From Clostridiales bacterium (lineage in GTDB: Bacteria; Bacillota; Clostridia; Caldicoprobacterales; Xylanivirgaceae): a stretch of 64,000 bases of DNA. The notes under the pieces are model-generated. The model was not told the origin of the DNA. It saw nothing but the letters and a program-made list of their open reading frames with translations, and did not search any database. The position numbers were made by a program, and so were the translations under genes. Positions 27,379 through 37,882 of this stretch are shown here, one piece after another; within the stretch, counting starts at the first letter, position 1, and the number at the start of each line of letters is the position of its first letter. The stretch lies in the NCBI GenBank assembly GCA_012799205.1, contig JAAZLT010000178.1:13213-77212 (forward strand), written 5' to 3'.

Positions 27379-28125
27379 TCATATATTATTGGCCGTTTCC
27401 AAAATCAGAATATACCTTTGTAACTCTTCTTCCACATATCCTGTGAGCATTTTCGTTAGCATTATTGGATTAGACTCATTTTTATGATAATCTGTAAAGC
27501 AATCATAATATTTTCGTCTATCCTTAAATTTAATATTAATAGGAGGATAACCTTCTTTCATAAGCTCAAGGTTTATAATAAGTCTCCCTGTTCTGCCATT
27601 TCCATCTATAAATGGATGTATGAATTCGAATTGTAGATGAAACATAGCAATCCTTTCTATTAAATGCTTATTTTCTATGTTTTTCTCATATTCTTGCATT
27701 AACTGTCCCATCAATACTGGTACTAGGTATGGTTGAGGCGGTTCGTGTATGGCCCCTGAAATAGTGACCGGGATTCGCCTATATCTTCCTTTATCTTGAG
27801 GTTTGTCCATCAAAACTATGCTATGGATATCTTTAATTATCTTTTCAGATAGTATAGATTTACCTTTAACTAAATCTTCAATGTATAGAAAGGCCTCTTT
27901 ATGCCCGATAGCTTCTAGATGCTCTCTTAAAGGTTTTTTATCTATTGTAATTCCCTCTTGGAGCACAAGGGCGGTTTCATGTAGTGTTAAAGTATTCCCT
28001 TCGATTGCATTGGAATTATATGTGAAATCTATTAAAAATTCATCCCTAATCCTTTTTACTTCACCCTCAGTTAAAGGCCTATGTTCATTTAATTTATTTA
28101 GTAAATCATCTACCTTTTTAAACAT
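27379..28125 (-). CDS. fic: Fic family protein (canonical AMPylase-type motif, N-terminal inhibitory helix)
   Basis: HPFIDGNGRTGR matches HxFx(D/E)GNGRxxR. The N-terminal SNAIEG matches the (S/T)xxxE(G/N) auto-inhibition motif. 248 aa. Confidence 0.88.
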   Translation of the reverse strand: MFKKVDDLLNKLNEHRPLTEGEVKRIRDEFLIDFTYNSNAIEGNTLTLHETALVLQEGITIDKKPLREHLEAIGHKEAFLYIEDLVKGKSILSEKIIKDIHSIVLMDKPQDKGRYRRIPVTISGAIHEPPQPYLVPVLMGQLMQEYEKNIENKHLIERIAMFHLQFEFIHPFIDGNGRTGRLIINLELMKEGYPPINIKFKDRRKYYDCFTDYHKNESNPIMLTKMLTGYVEEELQRYILILETANNI

Positions 28126-30474: not shown

Positions 30475-30547
30475 GCATGGCTACTCTATTGTATATGCTA
30501 ACATTTGCACTTTAGTAATATTCCCCAATAATCATTGATATAAGTTT

Positions 30548-31076
30548 CTAAATCGGAAAGTATAAGTATACATTAGGAGAATAACCTTCCTTCATAAGTT
30601 CAAGATTTATAATCAGTCTACCTGTTCTGCCTTTTCCATCTACGAATGGATGTATGGATTCGAATTGCAGGTGAAACATAGCAATCCTTTCTATTAAATG
30701 CTTATTTTCTATGTTTTTCTCATATTCTTGCATTAACTGTTCCATCAATACTGGTACTAGGTATGGTTGAGGCGGCTCATGTATGGCTTCTGAAATAGTG
30801 ACCGGGAGTCGCCTATATCTTCCCTTATCTTAAGGTTTGTCCACCAAAACTATGCTCCGATAGCTTCTAGATGTTCTCTCAAAGATTTTTTATCTATTGT
30901 AACTCCCTTTTGGAACACAAGGGTGGTTTCATATAGTGTTAGGGTATTGCCCTCGATTGCATTGAAGTAATATGTAAAGTCTATTAGAAATTCATCCCTA
31001 ATCCTTTTTACTTCACCCTCAGTTAAAAGATTGTAGTCGGTCAGTTCGTTGAGCAGGTTATTTTTTTCTCAAACAT
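30548..31076 (-). pseudogene. fic: fic pseudogene (decayed copy of 27379-28125)
   Basis: It is nucleotide-level alignable to the intact fic. It has an in-frame TAA where fic has CAA (GACAAACCTTAAGA vs GACAAACCTCAAGA), an internal deletion of ~90 nt, and a replaced 3' end. The motif reads HPFVDGKGRTGR. Confidence 0.85.
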
Positions 31077-31270
31077 AAAGCTCCTCCAATTCATACATGT
31101 AAATTATCGTCAAATTATCCAAACTTTATACCTATGTTTCATTATGAAATACCTTTTAATAGCCCAGAGTTTATCAAAACAATAACAACTGATTCTAATA
31201 TCATTATAGCATGCTTAAAAGAACTATCCTGTTAAAATGGTATAAAGAATAGATTAGGAAGCTCATTCCC

Positions 31271-31298
31271 TGACTTTACAGGCAATATGTGATATAAT
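31271..31298 (+). promoter_or_regulatory. Putative extended -10 promoter of the MTase/helicase operon
   Basis: TGACTT-16 nt-TATAAT with a TGn extension (TGATATAAT at 31290-31298). It lies in a ~390-bp AT-rich non-coding stretch. Confidence 0.45.
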
Positions 31299-31469: not shown

Positions 31470-32135
31470 TTGGAAAAAGCAAATGAACAAATTAAATCAA
31501 GACAAAGGGTTACAGACCATGGAGAAGTTTTTACTGCCGAAAGAGAGGTCAATGCCATGCTGGATTTAGTCAAGCAAGAAACGGAAAGAATAGATAGCCG
31601 ATTTCTAGAGCCAGCGTGTGGAACAGGCAATTTCCTTGAGGAAATCCTACGGAGAAAGTTAAATGTGGTAAAAAGTAGATATTCAAAGAGTAAATCAGAT
31701 TATGAAAGATATTCCATAGTGGCTGTTACTAGTATTTATGGAGTTGATATTTTAGAAGATAATATTTTAGAATGTCGTAATCGAATGTATTCCATCCTAG
31801 AAAAACAATATAAAAAATTATGGAAAGAAGACATGGGAAAAGAATATAGTGAAGCTGTAAAATATATATTAACCAAAAATATTTTACATGGCGATGCTCT
31901 ATCTATGAAAACTCTTGACAAAAATCCAATTATATTTTCTGAATGGACTCTAGTAAGCGGGAATATGATAAAGCGTAGGGATTATCGCTTTGATGAACTA
32001 TTAGAAGGAAACCAAGATCAACGATCAGTTTTTACTATGGAGTGGGAGTATGATGAAGAGATACAAGCCTTTATCCCAGCACCCATAAAAGAATATCCTC
32101 TTGTGGACTATAGGAGGGTACAATATGCTGAATAA
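31470..32135 (+). CDS. Short DNA-methyltransferase-like protein with SAM-binding motifs but no catalytic (D/N)PPY motif
   Basis: The TTG at 31470 lies 8 nt after AAAGGAGG; the track start at 31425 has no RBS. Motifs: GEVFTAEREVNAMLDLV, motif I FLEPACGTGNFL (31605-31637), IYGVDI, NILHGDAL. There is no NPPY-type tetrapeptide. The stop overlaps the next start by 11 nt. Confidence 0.65.
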   Translation: MEKANEQIKSRQRVTDHGEVFTAEREVNAMLDLVKQETERIDSRFLEPACGTGNFLEEILRRKLNVVKSRYSKSKSDYERYSIVAVTSIYGVDILEDNILECRNRMYSILEKQYKKLWKEDMGKEYSEAVKYILTKNILHGDALSMKTLDKNPIIFSEWTLVSGNMIKRRDYRFDELLEGNQDQRSVFTMEWEYDEEIQAFIPAPIKEYPLVDYRRVQYAE

Positions 32136-33630
32136 GGATTTATATTCAAACGTGTATAATCCAGATGTTTTATCAACTTTAGCAAATTTATCAAGTGATG
32201 AGGTATTTACACCTCCCGAGATAGTAAACCAGATGTTAGACTTATTGCCAGAAGATTTATGGTCTAACCCAGAGACAACTTTTCTTGATCCCGCATGTAA
32301 ATCAGGCGTGTTTTTAAGGGAAATTGCCAAACGGTTAATTAAAAGTTTAGAGGATCAGATCCCTGAACTGCAAGAGAGATTAGACCATATTTTCCATAAA
32401 CAACTCTATGGTATTGCAATTACCGAGATTACAAGTCTACTTTCTAGACTCAGTGCATATGGTTCAAAATATGCCAATAGCATATTTTCTTTTAGCGAAT
32501 TTGATAATCCCATAGGTAATATAAAGTTTAATATTATTCCACATACTTGGGAACGTAATAAGTGTAAATACTGTGGTGCCTCAAAAGCAGAATACAAAAG
32601 AGATGACGAGTTGGAGACTCATGCATATGAGTTTATACATATAGAAAAACCAGAGGAGATATTTAAAATGAGATTTGATGTAATAATAGGTAATCCACCA
32701 TATCAACTAAGTGATGGTGGAGCTGGCGCTAGCGCTAAACCGATATATCATTTGTTTGTCGAACAGGCTATAAAGATGAACCCGAGATATTTAAGTATGA
32801 TTATACCTGCAAGATGGTATGCAGGCGGTAAGGGGCTAAATGATTTCAGGAGATTTATGTTAAATAATAATCATATTACATACTTAGTAGATTATGCTGA
32901 TTCCTCTGATTGCTTCACAGGTGTTAATATAGCTGGAGGTGTATGCTATTTTTTATGGGAAAGAGATAATGCCGGTGACTGTGAAATTATAAATATTAAA
33001 AAGAATAAAGAAAATAGAATGAAAAGGAAATTAAATGAGTTTCCCATGCTAGTCAGAGATAATATATCTGTAAAAATAATACGAAAGGTTTTAAAGTCAA
33101 CAGGTGCAGATATGACAGATATTGTTAAAGCAAGAAATCCATTTGGAATTCCTACGAATTTTATTAATAAGAATTCCAAGAAAGAGATTAAGGTATTTAC
33201 CTCAAGAGGGGAAACATGGATAAAAGAAGCAGATATTCATGATAGAGATAACATTCTAAATCGTTATAAGGTGATTACCACAAGAGCTATGTCAGGTGGC
33301 CACAAGCCTAGCTCCGATGGCGATTACATGGTATTGTCATCTTTAAGTATAATTAAACCTAAAGAGGCCTTCTCTGAAACATATTTATGTATAGGTGATT
33401 TTGAAAAAAAACAACATGCTAATAACTTGTTATCTTATGCAAGTACAAAATTTTTTAGATTTCTTTTACTGCAGGCATTAACGTCAATAAATATTACTAG
33501 ACAAAGATTTGTATTTGTTCCCCAACAAGATTTTTCCAAGTCTTGGACAGATCAAGAGCTGTATAAAAAGTATAATCTAAATCAGGAAGAGATTAGTTTT
33601 ATTGAATCAATGATTAGGCCAATGGAATAG
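32125..33630 (+). CDS. Eco57I-like (gamma-class) N6-adenine DNA methyltransferase with C-terminal target-recognition region
   Basis: ATG at 32125 after TAGGAGGG. Motifs: DEVFTPPEIVNQMLDLL, motif I LDPACKSGVFL, motif IV IIGNPPYQ (32692-32703), AKPIYHLFVEQA, ARWYAGGKGLNDFR. ~500 aa. Confidence 0.8.
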   Translation: MLNKDLYSNVYNPDVLSTLANLSSDEVFTPPEIVNQMLDLLPEDLWSNPETTFLDPACKSGVFLREIAKRLIKSLEDQIPELQERLDHIFHKQLYGIAITEITSLLSRLSAYGSKYANSIFSFSEFDNPIGNIKFNIIPHTWERNKCKYCGASKAEYKRDDELETHAYEFIHIEKPEEIFKMRFDVIIGNPPYQLSDGGAGASAKPIYHLFVEQAIKMNPRYLSMIIPARWYAGGKGLNDFRRFMLNNNHITYLVDYADSSDCFTGVNIAGGVCYFLWERDNAGDCEIINIKKNKENRMKRKLNEFPMLVRDNISVKIIRKVLKSTGADMTDIVKARNPFGIPTNFINKNSKKEIKVFTSRGETWIKEADIHDRDNILNRYKVITTRAMSGGHKPSSDGDYMVLSSLSIIKPKEAFSETYLCIGDFEKKQHANNLLSYASTKFFRFLLLQALTSINITRQRFVFVPQQDFSKSWTDQELYKKYNLNQEEISFIESMIRPME

Positions 33631-33632
33631 GG

Positions 33633-36578
33633 GTGATATTAATGACAGATAGCCAATTCTTTCCTCAACGACCAAAATATAAACCTATGATTTATGCTTA
33701 TAAAGATAGAAATTATCCCGGGCTGTTAAAAATAGGATATACAACTATAGACGTCAAAAAACGGGTAGAGCAACAATACCCTGTAATTTTACCGGATACA
33801 AAGCCTTATAAGATAGTTTTCGCCAAGCCTGCCATTCGGAATGATGGCTCTAGCTTTATGGACCATGAAATTCATAATAGGCTAAAGAAATCCAAGTTTG
33901 AAAATCCCGATGGAGAATGGTTTAAATGTAATGTAGATGAATTAAATGCAGCCTATATTTCTGTTAGAGATAGAGTAGAAAATATAGAAAATAGAACTAG
34001 AGATTTTCAAATGAGGCCAGAGCAAAAAGATGCAGTGGATAAGACCATCTCTTTCTATAGGAGTGCAAAAAGAGAATATCCTGATAGGGCCCCAAAATTT
34101 CTATGGAATGCTAAGATGAGATTTGGCAAGACTTTTGCTGCCTATCAGCTGGCTAAAAAGATAAATTTGAAGAAAATCTTAGTACTCACATTTAAACCTG
34201 CGGTTGAAAGTGCCTGGGAAGAAGACCTAATGACTCATATAGACTTTGAGGGCTGGCAGTTTATTAGTAAGAAAAACGAGTTTAGCGTAACAGATTTAGA
34301 TGAATCTAGGCCTATGGTGTGTTTTGGTTCTTTTCAAGATTTACTGGGAGTAGATAGGAATACTGGCGGAATTAAAGCAAAAAACGAGTGGATTCACACT
34401 ACTCACTGGGATATGGTTATATTCGATGAATACCATTTTGGTGCTTGGCGTGATAGTGCGCAAAAATTATTCGAAAAAGAAGATGAGGATGAATATGACT
34501 CCCTCGATATAGAAGAATATAAAGAAAGGGAAGCAGACAATGCCTATAATGAGACATTCTTGCCTATAACCACATCATATTATCTGTTTTTATCCGGAAC
34601 ACCTTTTAGAGCTATAAATTCGGGGGAATTTATAGAAGATCAGATTTTCAATTGGACGTATTCTGATGAACAAGATGCAAAAGAAAAATGGGGCAATAGG
34701 CCCGACAATCCCTACAAATCGTTGCCTAGAATGGTTATGATGACCTATAGAATGCCAGATGATATCAGGAAGATTGCTCTACAGGGAGAGTTTGATGAAT
34801 TTGATTTAAATGTGTTTTTCTCTGCAGAAGGAGAAGAGGATAATGCAAAATTCATATATGAAAATGAAGTTCAAAAATGGCTAGACTTAATAAGGGGAGC
34901 TCATCTTCCTGCAAATATTGATGATTTGAGATTGGGTAGAGATAGAAGGCCCCCTATGCCATATTCCGATGAAAGATTATTAAGTGTATTAACCCACACA
35001 TTGTGGTTTATGCCATCTGTAGCATCTGCTTATGCAATGAAAAACTTGTTACTTAAAAAACATAATACATTTTTTCATGATTACAATATAAATGTGGCCG
35101 CTGGACCTAGGGCAGGGATTGGATTAGATGCCTTGGCTCCTGTTCAAAAATCTATGGGCAACCCTTTAGAAACCAAAACTATTACATTATCTTGTGGGAA
35201 ATTAACTACAGGTGTAACTATTAGGCCCTGGACAGGTATATTTATGCTGAGAAACTTATCTAGTCCCGAAACTTATTTTCAAGCTGCATTTAGAGTGCAG
35301 AGCCCTTGGGTTGTAGATGGAGAAATGGGTAAAAAGGAAATCATGAAAGAAGAATGTTATGTATTTGATTTTGCTTTAGACAGAGCCTTGAGGCAAATAG
35401 CCGATTATAGTACAAGGTTGAATGTAGAAGAATCTGATCCCGAGATAAAGGTGGGAGAGTTTATAAAATTCCTTCCGGTGCTTGCTTACGATGGCAGTAC
35501 TATGAAACAGGTAAATGCTACAGATATATTAGATATTGCCATGGCAGGAACATCAGCAACATTATTAGCTAGAAGATGGGAAAGTGCTCTTTTGGTCAAT
35601 GTTGATAATGATACCCTTACACGACTTATGGAAAATGAAGAAGCTATGAATGCTTTAATGAGTATAGAAGGGTTTAGAAGCCTGAATAGTGATATAGAAA
35701 CCATTATCAATAAGTCTAATTCTGTAAAAAAGGCGCGTAAAGAAGGAGAGGATTTAAGTACTAAGGAAAAAAGGGAGCTTACTAAAGAGGAGAGAGAATA
35801 TAAAACCCTACGTAAAGAAGTCCAGGAAAAGCTTATTAAGTTTGCTACAAGGATCCCTATTTTCATGTATCTTACTGATTATAGGGAGAAGTCTTTGAGA
35901 GATGTAATAACTCAGTTAGAACCTGGATTATTTAAAAAAGTAACAGGCTTAAATGTTAGAGATTTCGAACTTTTAGTATCTCTAGGTGTATTTAATGGTC
36001 CCTTGATGAATGATGCAGTTTATAAATTTAAAAGGTATGAGGATGCGAGTCTAGAATATACAGGTATCAATAAGCACAAGGACATGGATATAGGTCTTTG
36101 GGATACAGTAATAAGTCCCGACGATTACGAGAATATGTTTAGGATGCAACAGGCCTCTCTGGGGGTCTCAGTTATGAGATCGGAAATAGATAATGAAATA
36201 CGCAAAACCATAGAAGACAAAGAAGAAATAAAAAATGGAAAAGGTCATAATGCAAAAATCCACGATATCAAAATTAAGGATACTATCAGTATAAATAGAA
36301 ACAATAAACATAAGCAAAATATGGGCCAATTAAAAGCTGCGGAAGATTCGGAAAAAGAATTATCTAATAAAAAGACTAAAGCAAGATTAGGGAATGACAC
36401 AATAGATTATACTGAAATTATCAGCAACGGTGATACAGTAGAGCACAATAAGTTTGGAAAAGGAATAGTTATGGCTATAGACAAAGAAAATAACCGCATT
36501 ACAATTAAGTTTAAATTCGGAGAGAAGATGTTTATATTTCCCAAGACTTTTGAAAATGGTTTCTTAATGGTAAAATAG
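33633..36578 (+). CDS. T5orf172/GIY-YIG-like nuclease domain fused to SF2 (ResIII/DEAH-type) helicase, with Tudor-like C-terminal tail; putative restriction/defence effector
   Basis: N-domain (aa ~18-110): MIYAYKDRNYPGLLKIGYTT..KKRVEQ..DHEIHNRL..DGEWFKC. Helicase: Walker A RFGKTFAA (34125), DEYH (34425-34436), LSGTPF, QAAFRVQSP. C-terminus: GDTVEHNKFGKGIVMAIDKENNRITIKFKFGEKMF. The true start may be the ATG at 33642 (GGGGTG RBS). Confidence 0.7.
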   Translation: MILMTDSQFFPQRPKYKPMIYAYKDRNYPGLLKIGYTTIDVKKRVEQQYPVILPDTKPYKIVFAKPAIRNDGSSFMDHEIHNRLKKSKFENPDGEWFKCNVDELNAAYISVRDRVENIENRTRDFQMRPEQKDAVDKTISFYRSAKREYPDRAPKFLWNAKMRFGKTFAAYQLAKKINLKKILVLTFKPAVESAWEEDLMTHIDFEGWQFISKKNEFSVTDLDESRPMVCFGSFQDLLGVDRNTGGIKAKNEWIHTTHWDMVIFDEYHFGAWRDSAQKLFEKEDEDEYDSLDIEEYKEREADNAYNETFLPITTSYYLFLSGTPFRAINSGEFIEDQIFNWTYSDEQDAKEKWGNRPDNPYKSLPRMVMMTYRMPDDIRKIALQGEFDEFDLNVFFSAEGEEDNAKFIYENEVQKWLDLIRGAHLPANIDDLRLGRDRRPPMPYSDERLLSVLTHTLWFMPSVASAYAMKNLLLKKHNTFFHDYNINVAAGPRAGIGLDALAPVQKSMGNPLETKTITLSCGKLTTGVTIRPWTGIFMLRNLSSPETYFQAAFRVQSPWVVDGEMGKKEIMKEECYVFDFALDRALRQIADYSTRLNVEESDPEIKVGEFIKFLPVLAYDGSTMKQVNATDILDIAMAGTSATLLARRWESALLVNVDNDTLTRLMENEEAMNALMSIEGFRSLNSDIETIINKSNSVKKARKEGEDLSTKEKRELTKEEREYKTLRKEVQEKLIKFATRIPIFMYLTDYREKSLRDVITQLEPGLFKKVTGLNVRDFELLVSLGVFNGPLMNDAVYKFKRYEDASLEYTGINKHKDMDIGLWDTVISPDDYENMFRMQQASLGVSVMRSEIDNEIRKTIEDKEEIKNGKGHNAKIHDIKIKDTISINRNNKHKQNMGQLKAAEDSEKELSNKKTKARLGNDTIDYTEIISNGDTVEHNKFGKGIVMAIDKENNRITIKFKFGEKMFIFPKTFENGFLMVK

Positions 36579-37261: not shown

Positions 37262-37882
37262 TCATTCATCATCTATTATAAGTCCATGGATACAATTATC
37301 ATATATAAAACTATCTATCTCACTGTAATTCCCCGTATTGTAAAACTTACTTAGGCGTATGTTAAATTCTTGTATATATTTTTCGGGTATGCTTAAGACT
37401 CCCTTGCCCCTGCTTATTAAAATCTTATTAGCTCCTAAAGTAGAAATCCTTTTATTCCCATTCCAAAATAGCCGACTTCTCATTCCCCATAAAAAATATC
37501 TGATAGCTCTCTCTGTGACATTTTCAATATCAAGAATGTTGTTTATCTCTTCTAAAACATATTCTCTCTTAGGAACAGGTGGAACATAATCTACGCCTGA
37601 TATGGATATTCTTCCATTTCTCAACACGCCCCATTCGAGGCTCCCATTTCTTGATACATAGTAATTGAGCTTGCATATAAATTCTAGATTGAATTCTTTT
37701 TCTATATTAGAAAAGAGATATCTCCAAGCATCCCTTAAGTTTAATATAACTTCCACGTCATCCATCTTAAGATTTGCCACACTTACTCCATCAAGAATAG
37801 TTTTTGTATCTGAAAAGGTTACATTACACCCCTCTAGCCTAGCACTATTATATATACTCTCTACAATCAGTTTTTTGGCCAA
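37262..37882 (-). CDS. Fic/Doc-family protein with degenerate active-site motif
   Basis: 206 aa. The N-terminal SARLEG matches the inhibitory (S/T)xxxE(G/N) motif. The core reads RLFWNGNKRIST, which has a Doc-like GNKR but no catalytic His of HxFx(D/E)GN(G/K)R. Confidence 0.6.
   Translation of the reverse strand: MAKKLIVESIYNSARLEGCNVTFSDTKTILDGVSVANLKMDDVEVILNLRDAWRYLFSNIEKEFNLEFICKLNYYVSRNGSLEWGVLRNGRISISGVDYVPPVPKREYVLEEINNILDIENVTERAIRYFLWGMRSRLFWNGNKRISTLGANKILISRGKGVLSIPEKYIQEFNIRLSKFYNTGNYSEIDSFIYDNCIHGLIIDDE

Follow-up and report, generated by a model that had tools for sequence, protein, structure and literature searches.

A three-gene locus in a Clostridiales bacterium encodes a putative T5orf172 nuclease–SF2 translocase with a PcrA/UvrD-type Tudor tail

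Results

The locus and its effector gene

The window analysed here is a 64,000-nucleotide stretch of DNA from a Clostridiales bacterium (GenBank assembly GCA_012799205.1, contig JAAZLT010000178.1, positions 13,213 to 77,212), and it contains a compact operon of three genes on the forward strand: a methyltransferase-like protein of 221 residues (gene 1, 31470..32135), an Eco57I-family N6-adenine DNA methyltransferase of 501 residues (gene 2, 32125..33630), and a large effector (gene 3, 33642..36578) that starts 11 nucleotides past the stop codon of gene 2. Start and stop codons within the operon overlap or nearly abut, the effector is the last gene, and all three frames are intact. An initial annotation, made from the sequence alone, had described an effector of 981 residues; the domains that it listed are borne out, but the protein is the product of the third gene of a conserved operon, together with a methyltransferase and a small protein, and does not stand alone. 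We consider it likely that the operon is an ATP-dependent defence system of the restriction-modification type, built from three genes, and that the effector provides its restriction (R) subunit; the whole would resemble a Type ISP enzyme divided over separate genes and equipped with a nuclease of the GIY-YIG type.

The open reading frame at 33633..36578 (+) is real and has 981 codons when counted from its GTG. The true start, however, is most likely the ATG at 33642, giving a protein of 978 residues, since homologues begin with MxxxxFFPQRP and a ribosome-binding-like element, GGGGTG, sits at a suitable distance 5′ of this ATG. The frame originally proposed is thus correct and its start most likely is not; residue numbers given here follow the 978-residue form and are 3 lower than those used before. 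More than 8000 database proteins match the effector, and the 120 best listed matches (847–1006 residues long) are 62–78% identical to it, nearly all over 99–100% of its length, so that its composition is not a product of chance. In database sources the homologues are named “restriction endonuclease” or “GIY-YIG nuclease family protein”, and a search of NCBIfam found no model for the effector. It consists of five parts in the order T5orf172 domain, superfamily 2 (SF2) ATPase, helical domain, disordered linker and a beta-barrel of about 50 residues. Apart from this last part, neither the whole effector nor a profile of its family found an informative relative among Protein Data Bank (PDB) sequences; NAP1-like and other matches with E-values of 0.008 or worse were dismissed as chance matches to charged helices. 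Conservation was judged on an alignment of 40 close homologues and, for the N-terminal domain, also on nine more distant sequences, down to 31% identity.

A putative nuclease domain, an SF2 motor and a helical domain

The N-terminal domain (aa ~12–112; 33675..33977, +) had been taken by eye for a relative of the T5orf172/MUG113-type GIY-YIG proteins, and Pfam and the alignments agree. Pfam T5orf172 (PF10544) matches aa 20–107 with E=5e-11 and 43.4 bits (cut-off 20), a match that also holds in relatives of the effector, and MUG113 scores 30.9 bits on the same domain (cut-off 22.3). Both families belong to the GIY-YIG clan. Residues Y18, K30, G32, T34, R41, E92 and W93 are invariant, even in relatives of only 31–39% identity, and they can be read as the strand-1 tyrosine of GIY-YIG proteins, the K-I/V-G-x-T strand typical of T5orf172, the helix-1 arginine and the putative metal-binding glutamate. 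The modelled domain has the expected order beta-beta-alpha-beta-alpha-alpha, with a predicted local distance difference test score (pLDDT) of 80–89. A profile of the domain matched no solved structure among the PDB sequences, and the only structural match to a protein of this type, a phage T5 Orf172 protein, is a weak one in Foldseek (E=5e-4, template modelling (TM) score 0.38). A homing endonuclease or mobile T5orf172 element was also considered and found no support, the domain being fused within a conserved operon.

Behind this domain lies the SF2 ATPase/translocase core (aa ~121–600; 34002..35441, +), recognised from ResIII, its motifs and a PADLOC profile. The ResIII family of Pfam covers aa 125–282 (E=8e-7), and the motifs include I (RFGKTF, with K163), II (DEYH, 262–265), III (SGTP, 318–321), a V-like GKLTTGVT and a VI-like QAAFRVQ (with R551). 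Motifs I, II, III and the VI-like one had been picked out by eye beforehand, and the alignment vindicates that choice: RFGKTF, DEYH, SGTP and QAAFRVQSP are all invariant. The best Foldseek matches of the modelled motor core are Swi2/Snf2 ATPases, ZorD and XPB, with E-values down to 7.5e-7, and on this model we place the motor as “SF2, Snf2/ResIII-like” and no more finely, because its second lobe is modelled poorly. The nuclease domain precedes the motor, which is indeed, as had been remarked, the reverse of the order in Type III Res; it is the order found in Type I HsdR and in Type ISP enzymes.

The motor is followed by a strongly conserved helical domain (aa ~601–844; 35442..36173, +), delimited from conservation and the AlphaFold2 model, in which aa 576–864 are almost entirely helical, in keeping with the long alpha-helical region first described. 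Of the 150 best-matching representatives of 50%-identity clusters, 87 appear to be full length, and every one of these has the helical domain. It is likely to be a docking or coupler element, to judge from single-chain relatives of the effector (see below), in which the same region runs into the methyltransferase.

A PcrA/UvrD-type Tudor domain on a flexible leash

The helical domain is joined to the C-terminal barrel by a disordered linker rich in Lys, Glu and Asn (aa 845–925; 36174..36416, +). Its composition (17% K, 11% E and 11% N) and a pLDDT below 50 across aa 845–919 fit the low-complexity Lys/Glu linker of the initial annotation. The linker is not conserved and varies in length from 39 to 109 residues among homologues; the richness in K and E is confined to this and other low-GC members, and elsewhere the linker is rich in P/A/S or in D/E.

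The last part of the effector (aa 926–978; 36417..36575, +) is homologous to the Tudor domain of PcrA/UvrD, the C-terminal barrel that it had been thought to resemble, as four independent tests agree. The Pfam family PcrA_UvrD_tudor (PF21196) is the best family for 27 of 30 tails from the effector family, always just under its gathering score of 23.9; the complete effector reaches 17 bits with it, and the tail taken by itself 22.5 bits. When a profile of the tail is searched against 177,635 PDB sequences, the C-terminal domain of Escherichia coli UvrD (7egs_B, 6yi2) comes first with E=8e-6, followed by UvrD of T. thermophilus and D. radiodurans, mycobacterial UvrD1 and PcrA. Alignment of the tail to PcrA/UvrD C-terminal domains by hhalign gives a probability of 96% and E=2e-9. 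Finally, the AlphaFold2 model of the tail (pLDDT 85.6) has five strands, and its four best PDB neighbours in Foldseek are all UvrD/PcrA Tudor domains (7egt_B, 7egs_B, 6yi2 and 5dma). The match to 7egt_B has a TM-score of 0.84 on the target and a root-mean-square deviation (rmsd) of 1.8 Å, with rmsd values across the top four of 1.8–2.7 Å; the E-values are modest (4e-3) owing to the small size of the domain. The signature of the tail reads G-x-x-V-x-H-K-x-F-G-x-G-x-V ... I-x-V-x-F ... G-E-K-x-F-x-F-P-x-x-F-E-N-G-F-L, in which H935, F938, G939, G941, F957, K962 and P967 are invariant and F964 nearly so (at least 90%).

The homology extends to residues with a known role in partner binding. In PcrA of G. 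stearothermophilus, Sanders et al. chose the conserved surface residues H681, W684, K712 and L714 for mutagenesis, and report that mutating them substantially lowers binding to RNA polymerase (PMC5397179). These residues, whose numbering we checked on the sequence of 1pjr, correspond to H935, F938, K962 and F964 of the effector, the first three of which belong to its invariant set. The pairing of K962 and F964 with K712 and L714 was made by inspection and structural superposition, as the local hhalign alignment ends before both. Urrutia-Irazabal et al. describe PcrA as a motor core, a long disordered linker and a Tudor domain, the latter gripping a beta-hairpin, the “helicase interaction motif”, on RpoB and UvrB (PMC8318588). 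The effector repeats this layout of motor, long disordered linker and Tudor domain on an SF2 motor. Neither the three operon proteins nor a six-frame translation of the window contains the motif by which PcrA recognises its partners, written as [VIL]-D-x-x-T-G-E-[VIL]-[VILT]; the sole TGE-like site, NSGEF beside helicase motif III, was not regarded as an instance.

Most relatives do without the tail. Of the 87 full-length representatives, 71 stop no more than 30 residues past the helical domain; the Tudor tail occurs in two, a fused methyltransferase in five and some other C-terminal addition in a few. The tail is missing from two of the related loci at 64–66% identity to the effector (L005 and L007) and present in a Prevotellaceae locus at 56%. 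It is therefore an optional accessory module of one populous subfamily, which argues against a role in core assembly and for one in targeting or regulation.

What the tail binds can be approached from these observations. From the conserved interface residues and the leash-like architecture, a hairpin on a host protein (RNA polymerase beta or UvrB) would rank first, ahead of a trans interaction within or between enzyme complexes, with non-specific DNA binding last. We put forward, tentatively, that the tail may tether the enzymes of this subfamily to the hairpin of RNA polymerase beta or UvrB, which would couple restriction to transcription or to nucleotide excision repair.

A different view is that the tail is an internal assembly element, which would bind the methyltransferase or the small subunit, or else reach in trans to another R subunit, the last amounting to a domain-swapped dimerisation that would license cleavage. 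Related ATP-dependent restriction enzymes as a rule cleave on collision or on forming a dimer, and a domain swap has been thought of for UvrD. We nevertheless find this rather unlikely, given that most relatives manage with the three-gene set and no tail, as the 71 representatives and the two loci at 64–66% identity show, so that the tail is not required for core assembly; moreover the operon proteins are devoid of a hairpin motif of the PcrA-partner type, and the residues conserved in the tail are those of the PcrA surface for external partners. More doubtful still is a role as a non-specific clamp on DNA, by which the motor would gain affinity or processivity. The Tudor domain of E. coli UvrD does have a non-specific affinity for nucleic acids besides its binding to RNA polymerase, and the tail encoded in the window is Lys-rich (15% K). 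However, the invariant positions do not make up a general basic surface but are aromatic, His and Lys residues clustered on the face that binds proteins, a tether of 39–109 residues is better suited to catching a separate partner, and most members of the family need no such clamp.

Some tail-less relatives carry other C-terminal modules, which by eye comprise two PD-(D/E)xK-like extensions and two RAMA-like ends. In P0122 and P0155 the additions make up the C-terminal ~270 residues, and in P0134 and P0235 the C-terminal ~100–130. A GDGDF..D..WDFKTSK pattern in one such relative looks, again by eye, like PD-(D/E)xK and would be a second nuclease. A Pfam scan of the P0122 and P0155 extensions, the only two scanned, matched nothing.

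Conservation of the cassette and single-chain relatives

The same arrangement of small-protein, methyltransferase and effector genes, in that order, is seen in metagenome-assembled genomes from Clostridiales, Tissierellaceae, Desulfovibrionaceae, Limisphaerales and Prevotellaceae. A scan of genome contigs with the single sequence gave 8 loci, and our statistics on genomic context come from about a dozen. The methyltransferase is 46–77% identical in 7 related loci, and the small protein, 49–75% identical in these, is always encoded directly upstream of it. The cassette is also mobile: a temperate gut phage (PV036449.1, 10793–16024 of the record) carries all three genes, tail included, at 60% identity, and effector relatives were found on plasmids of many genera. 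The phage cassette adjoins an excisionase-like gene.

Further evidence that the effector and the methyltransferase belong together comes from fusions. The PADLOC profile REase_MTase_IIG (PDLC03626, 1359 positions) matches the effector on positions 152–801 (E=4e-32) and the neighbouring methyltransferase on positions 862–1359 (E=5e-51). As one profile spans both genes, the two proteins are halves of what is a single chain elsewhere. A search of representatives accordingly contains natural T5orf172 + ResIII + Eco57I chains of 1193–1464 residues, which are distant relatives (34–41% identity). A similar chain of 1446 residues on an Enterococcus faecium plasmid has ResIII and Eco57I matches, with no T5orf172 match in Pfam at E<=0.01, and directly upstream of it lies a homologue of gene 1, encoding 248 residues (39% identity, E=3e-44).

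Structural neighbours were also found among viral proteins in BFVD, the best including A0A1V0SG34 (Hokovirus) and A0A0E3I7S5 (Synechococcus phage). The giant-virus match is a 1324-residue “adenine-specific DNA methyltransferase” and the best viral neighbours also include cyanophage proteins, which suggests that helicase–methyltransferase fusions also occur in viruses of eukaryotes and of cyanobacteria. Elsewhere, in a Desulfovibrionaceae metagenome-assembled genome (L005:4601–7402), the stop codon of a tail-less effector gene overlaps the start codon of the next gene, which encodes a 934-residue protein with a SIR2_2 domain; the latter could be a defence gene that merely lies next door or a different accessory.

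These data also bear on whether the effector could be a housekeeping helicase-nuclease of repair or transcription-coupled processes, with a role like that of UvrD or Mfd. Its tail is homologous to that of UvrD/PcrA, as such a role might lead one to expect, but the motor is SF2 and not SF1, the gene is strictly linked or fused to a DNA methyltransferase, the distribution is patchy and laterally transferred, plasmids and phage included, and most relatives have no tail. We regard a housekeeping function as highly improbable.

The operon partners and the flanking genes

Gene 1 has a TTG start with an AAGGAGG element 5′ of it, and its stop codon overlaps the start of gene 2. Its translation contains methyltransferase motif X (GEVFT), motif I (FLEPACGTGNFL) and NILHGDAL, with NPPY replaced by a conserved PIIFSEW, and gives weak matches to MmeI_Mtase and to the N-terminal MTase_II family. 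Homologues number more than 8000 proteins; the 120 listed are of about 220 residues, some of them named SAM-dependent DNA methyltransferase. A profile of this small protein found no informative relative among PDB sequences. The product may be a catalytically dead reader of S-adenosylmethionine (SAM) or of the methylation state, or a regulator subunit.

Gene 2, a complete methyltransferase of its family, is assigned by Pfam (Eco57I, E=3.9e-39; N6_Mtase, 1.9e-9) and PADLOC, with a weak score for MmeI_Mtase (24.1 bits against a cut-off of 27). Its motif I is FLDPACKSGVFL and its motif IV GNPPYQ, the protein carrying FLDPACKSG as well as GNPPYQ, and the C-terminal ~230 residues are presumably the target-recognition region. 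Between motif I and NPPY there is an insertion (window 32500–32640, +; aa ~125–170), reading HTWERNKCKYCG...ETHAYEFIH, which, seen by eye, could be a small Cys/His metal-binding element.

A candidate sigma-70-like promoter (31270..31298, +) lies upstream of the operon, with CTGACT and TATAAT separated by 17 nucleotides, an extended TG and 10 of 12 matches in a consensus scan. Such sites are no more numerous in the region than in shuffled sequences, so it is a candidate only. The flanks hold three Fic-type genes within 10 kb, all on the reverse strand. An intact Fic-family gene (27379–28125; Pfam E=1.6e-22) and a degenerate Fic-like one (37262–37882; a weak match, E=9.5e-4, with a motif reading LFWNGNKRIS) lie on either side of the operon. 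The third (30480–31090) is a frameshifted Fic/DOC pseudogene, in which the active-site motif HPFVDGKGRTGR and the C-terminal half are in one frame and the N-terminal half is in another, with internal stops. The flanks also hold a diguanylate cyclase.

Comparison with known systems

The closest parallel in architecture is with the Type ISP enzymes LlaGI and LlaBIII, in which a nuclease, an SF2 motor, a coupler, a gamma-class adenine methyltransferase and a recognition region follow one another, an order reproduced exactly in the single-chain relatives of the effector. The expected logic is also alike, with site recognition, ATP-driven translocation and cleavage away from the site. A Type ISP enzyme is, however, one polypeptide, whereas here there are separate R and methyltransferase genes plus a third small gene; the nuclease of LlaGI is of the Mrr/PD-(D/E)xK type and that of the effector is T5orf172/GIY-YIG-type. 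The effector has no detectable sequence similarity to solved Type ISP chains, and its C-terminal Tudor tail is an extra.

By gene content the locus can also be likened to DnmA(YeeA)–YeeB–YeeC of Bacillus subtilis, an operon for an adenine methyltransferase of its own specificity, an SF2 helicase and a T5orf172 protein. There the helicase and T5orf172 protein are separate, whereas here they form one polypeptide with the nuclease domain N-terminal; DnmA is a long, MmeI-like methyltransferase and the one here a short Eco57I-family protein; and the small methyltransferase-like subunit and the Tudor tail are additional.

The tail has the fold and the signature of PcrA/UvrD (G-x-x-V-x-H-x-x-F/W-G-x-G ... 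V-x-F ... G-x-K-x-L/F), to which it adds a family-specific extension, F-x-F-P-x-x-F-E-N-G-F-L, and in both cases the Tudor domain sits at the extreme C-terminus of a DNA motor behind a long disordered linker. PcrA and UvrD are SF1 motors in a repair context, unlike the effector with its SF2 motor in a restriction-modification context. Swi2/Snf2-like motors with an accessory Tudor domain are known from RapA, from BrxHII of BREX type 3 and from BREX-related helicases, and those of the two BREX groups set a recent precedent for an accessory of this kind. In these proteins the Tudor domain is N-terminal and RapA-type, however, in contrast to the C-terminal, PcrA/UvrD-type domain of the effector, and where RapA- and BREX-related proteins have a nuclease it is PD-(D/E)xK or HKD.

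Type III Res proteins share a ResIII-type N-terminal helicase domain and a separate methyltransferase partner that gives specificity, but they have a C-terminal PD-(D/E)xK nuclease and a beta-class Mod, where this system has an N-terminal GIY-YIG-type domain and an Eco57I/gamma-type methyltransferase. Domain order, nuclease and methyltransferase class are therefore all wrong for membership of Type III. A classical Type I system was set aside as well, there being no HsdS gene and the methyltransferase having a C-terminal region of its own. Type IIG enzymes such as MmeI and Eco57I combine nuclease and methyltransferase in one chain and have no ATP-dependent motor. Both the effector and the methyltransferase match the PADLOC profile for Type IIG, but a strict Type IIG assignment was rejected, as nuclease and methyltransferase are encoded by different genes, with a complete SF2 ATPase interposed.

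Discussion

A translocating nuclease whose tail would dock on a partner, as the initial annotation supposed, still appears to be the most reasonable reading of the effector. That it serves as the R subunit of a restriction-modification-type system is suggested by the fusions, the conservation of the operon, the mobile and patchy distribution, and the selection on ATPase and nuclease residues. On the proposed mechanism, the Eco57I-family methyltransferase would read a specific, probably asymmetric site and methylate adenine there on host DNA, and the R subunit would dock on it through the conserved helical domain. At unmethylated sites the SF2 motor would hydrolyse ATP and move along double-stranded DNA, and the T5orf172/GIY-YIG-type nuclease would nick or cut it, probably at a distance and once the enzyme has collided or stalled. 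Type ISP, I and III enzymes are the models for this last step. A third core subunit, acting as regulator or reader, would be the small methyltransferase-like protein that lacks NPPY, and in the tailed subfamily the Tudor domain, on its flexible linker, would tether the enzyme to a beta-hairpin of its partner, for example RNA polymerase beta or UvrB.

Several points weigh against this interpretation. We found no characterised member of the family in the open-access literature searched. Sequence searches of solved structures, those of Type ISP, I and III enzymes included, detected no relative of the helicase or the methyltransferase, so that the mechanistic analogy is one of architecture. For the full-length protein the AlphaFold2 model, made with 40 close homologues, is poor (pLDDT 59 and a predicted TM-score of 0.33, with lobe 2 below 50). 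In the putative nuclease the second tyrosine of the classical GIY-YIG motif is not conserved, as is typical of T5orf172. As to the tail, the strict helicase interaction motif is missing from the operon proteins and the window, which neither supports nor excludes a host partner. There is also a locus (L001:7805–10910, GCA_900198705.1) with a full-length effector at 75% identity, a 61-residue methyltransferase remnant upstream of it and no small gene. This is apparently an orphaned R gene, which should be toxic or inactive, and some copies may thus be decaying or acting without modification. Lastly, the nearest studied relative in architecture, DnmA–YeeB–YeeC, was predicted by Morgan et al. to act like a Type I-style enzyme, yet in B. 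subtilis, under the conditions tried, it neither restricted DNA nor acted against phage; the study that reports this also cites homologues in Vibrio, deletion of which raised sensitivity to phage.

The B. subtilis system leads to the alternative that the locus is a relic or a non-restricting epigenetic module, with an active methyltransferase and a silent or regulatory helicase-nuclease, as has been proposed for DnmA–YeeB–YeeC. Deletion of yeeB or yeeC left the phage sensitivity of B. subtilis unchanged, deletion of dnmA did not alter its uptake of DNA, and the orphaned locus just described has lost its methyltransferase with the effector intact. Against this, the three frames are intact here, and thousands of homologues, from several phyla, plasmids and a phage, show no change in the ATPase and nuclease residues, which points to selection on activity; the surroundings, with Fic-family genes on the flanks, one of them broken, are also such as are common around defence loci. 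We therefore consider a non-restricting module improbable and retain the ATP-dependent restriction-modification-type system as the explanation of the locus.

The core architecture has been met before. Surveys of defence islands count the pairing of T5orf172 (PF10544) with ResIII among restriction-modification families, papers on Type ISP enzymes and MmeI mention, as uncharacterised, helicase-associated relatives with GIY-YIG nucleases, and the members of the effector family are named automatically and covered by PADLOC as Type IIG. It had been asked at the outset whether the protein might belong to a well-known annotated restriction endonuclease family: the family is indeed very large, automatically annotated, listed and anticipated, but none of its members appears to have been characterised. 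In the open-access literature searched we found no description of a PcrA/UvrD-type tail on such an enzyme, nor of the conserved small subunit without NPPY.

Helicase-linked GIY-YIG restriction enzymes have been noticed in passing since 2009 and are not known to have been characterised, and yet this family alone runs to thousands of proteins, encoded by bacteria of gut, soil and industrial settings, by plasmids (those of Enterococcus among them) and by phages. The locus described here is a compact and intact three-gene example, and the hypothesis about its tail is concrete and cheap to test. Should the tail prove merely an aid to DNA binding or assembly, the enzyme would still represent a new combination of nuclease and motor among ATP-dependent restriction enzymes. 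If it does bind RNA polymerase or UvrB, a restriction motor would be linked to the transcription or repair machinery, a link that lies outside current models of Type I, ISP or III enzymes. The motor-nuclease could then concentrate on DNA that the host RNA polymerase transcribes, such as the early regions of phage, or the tether could serve to resolve collisions of the moving enzyme with RNA polymerase.

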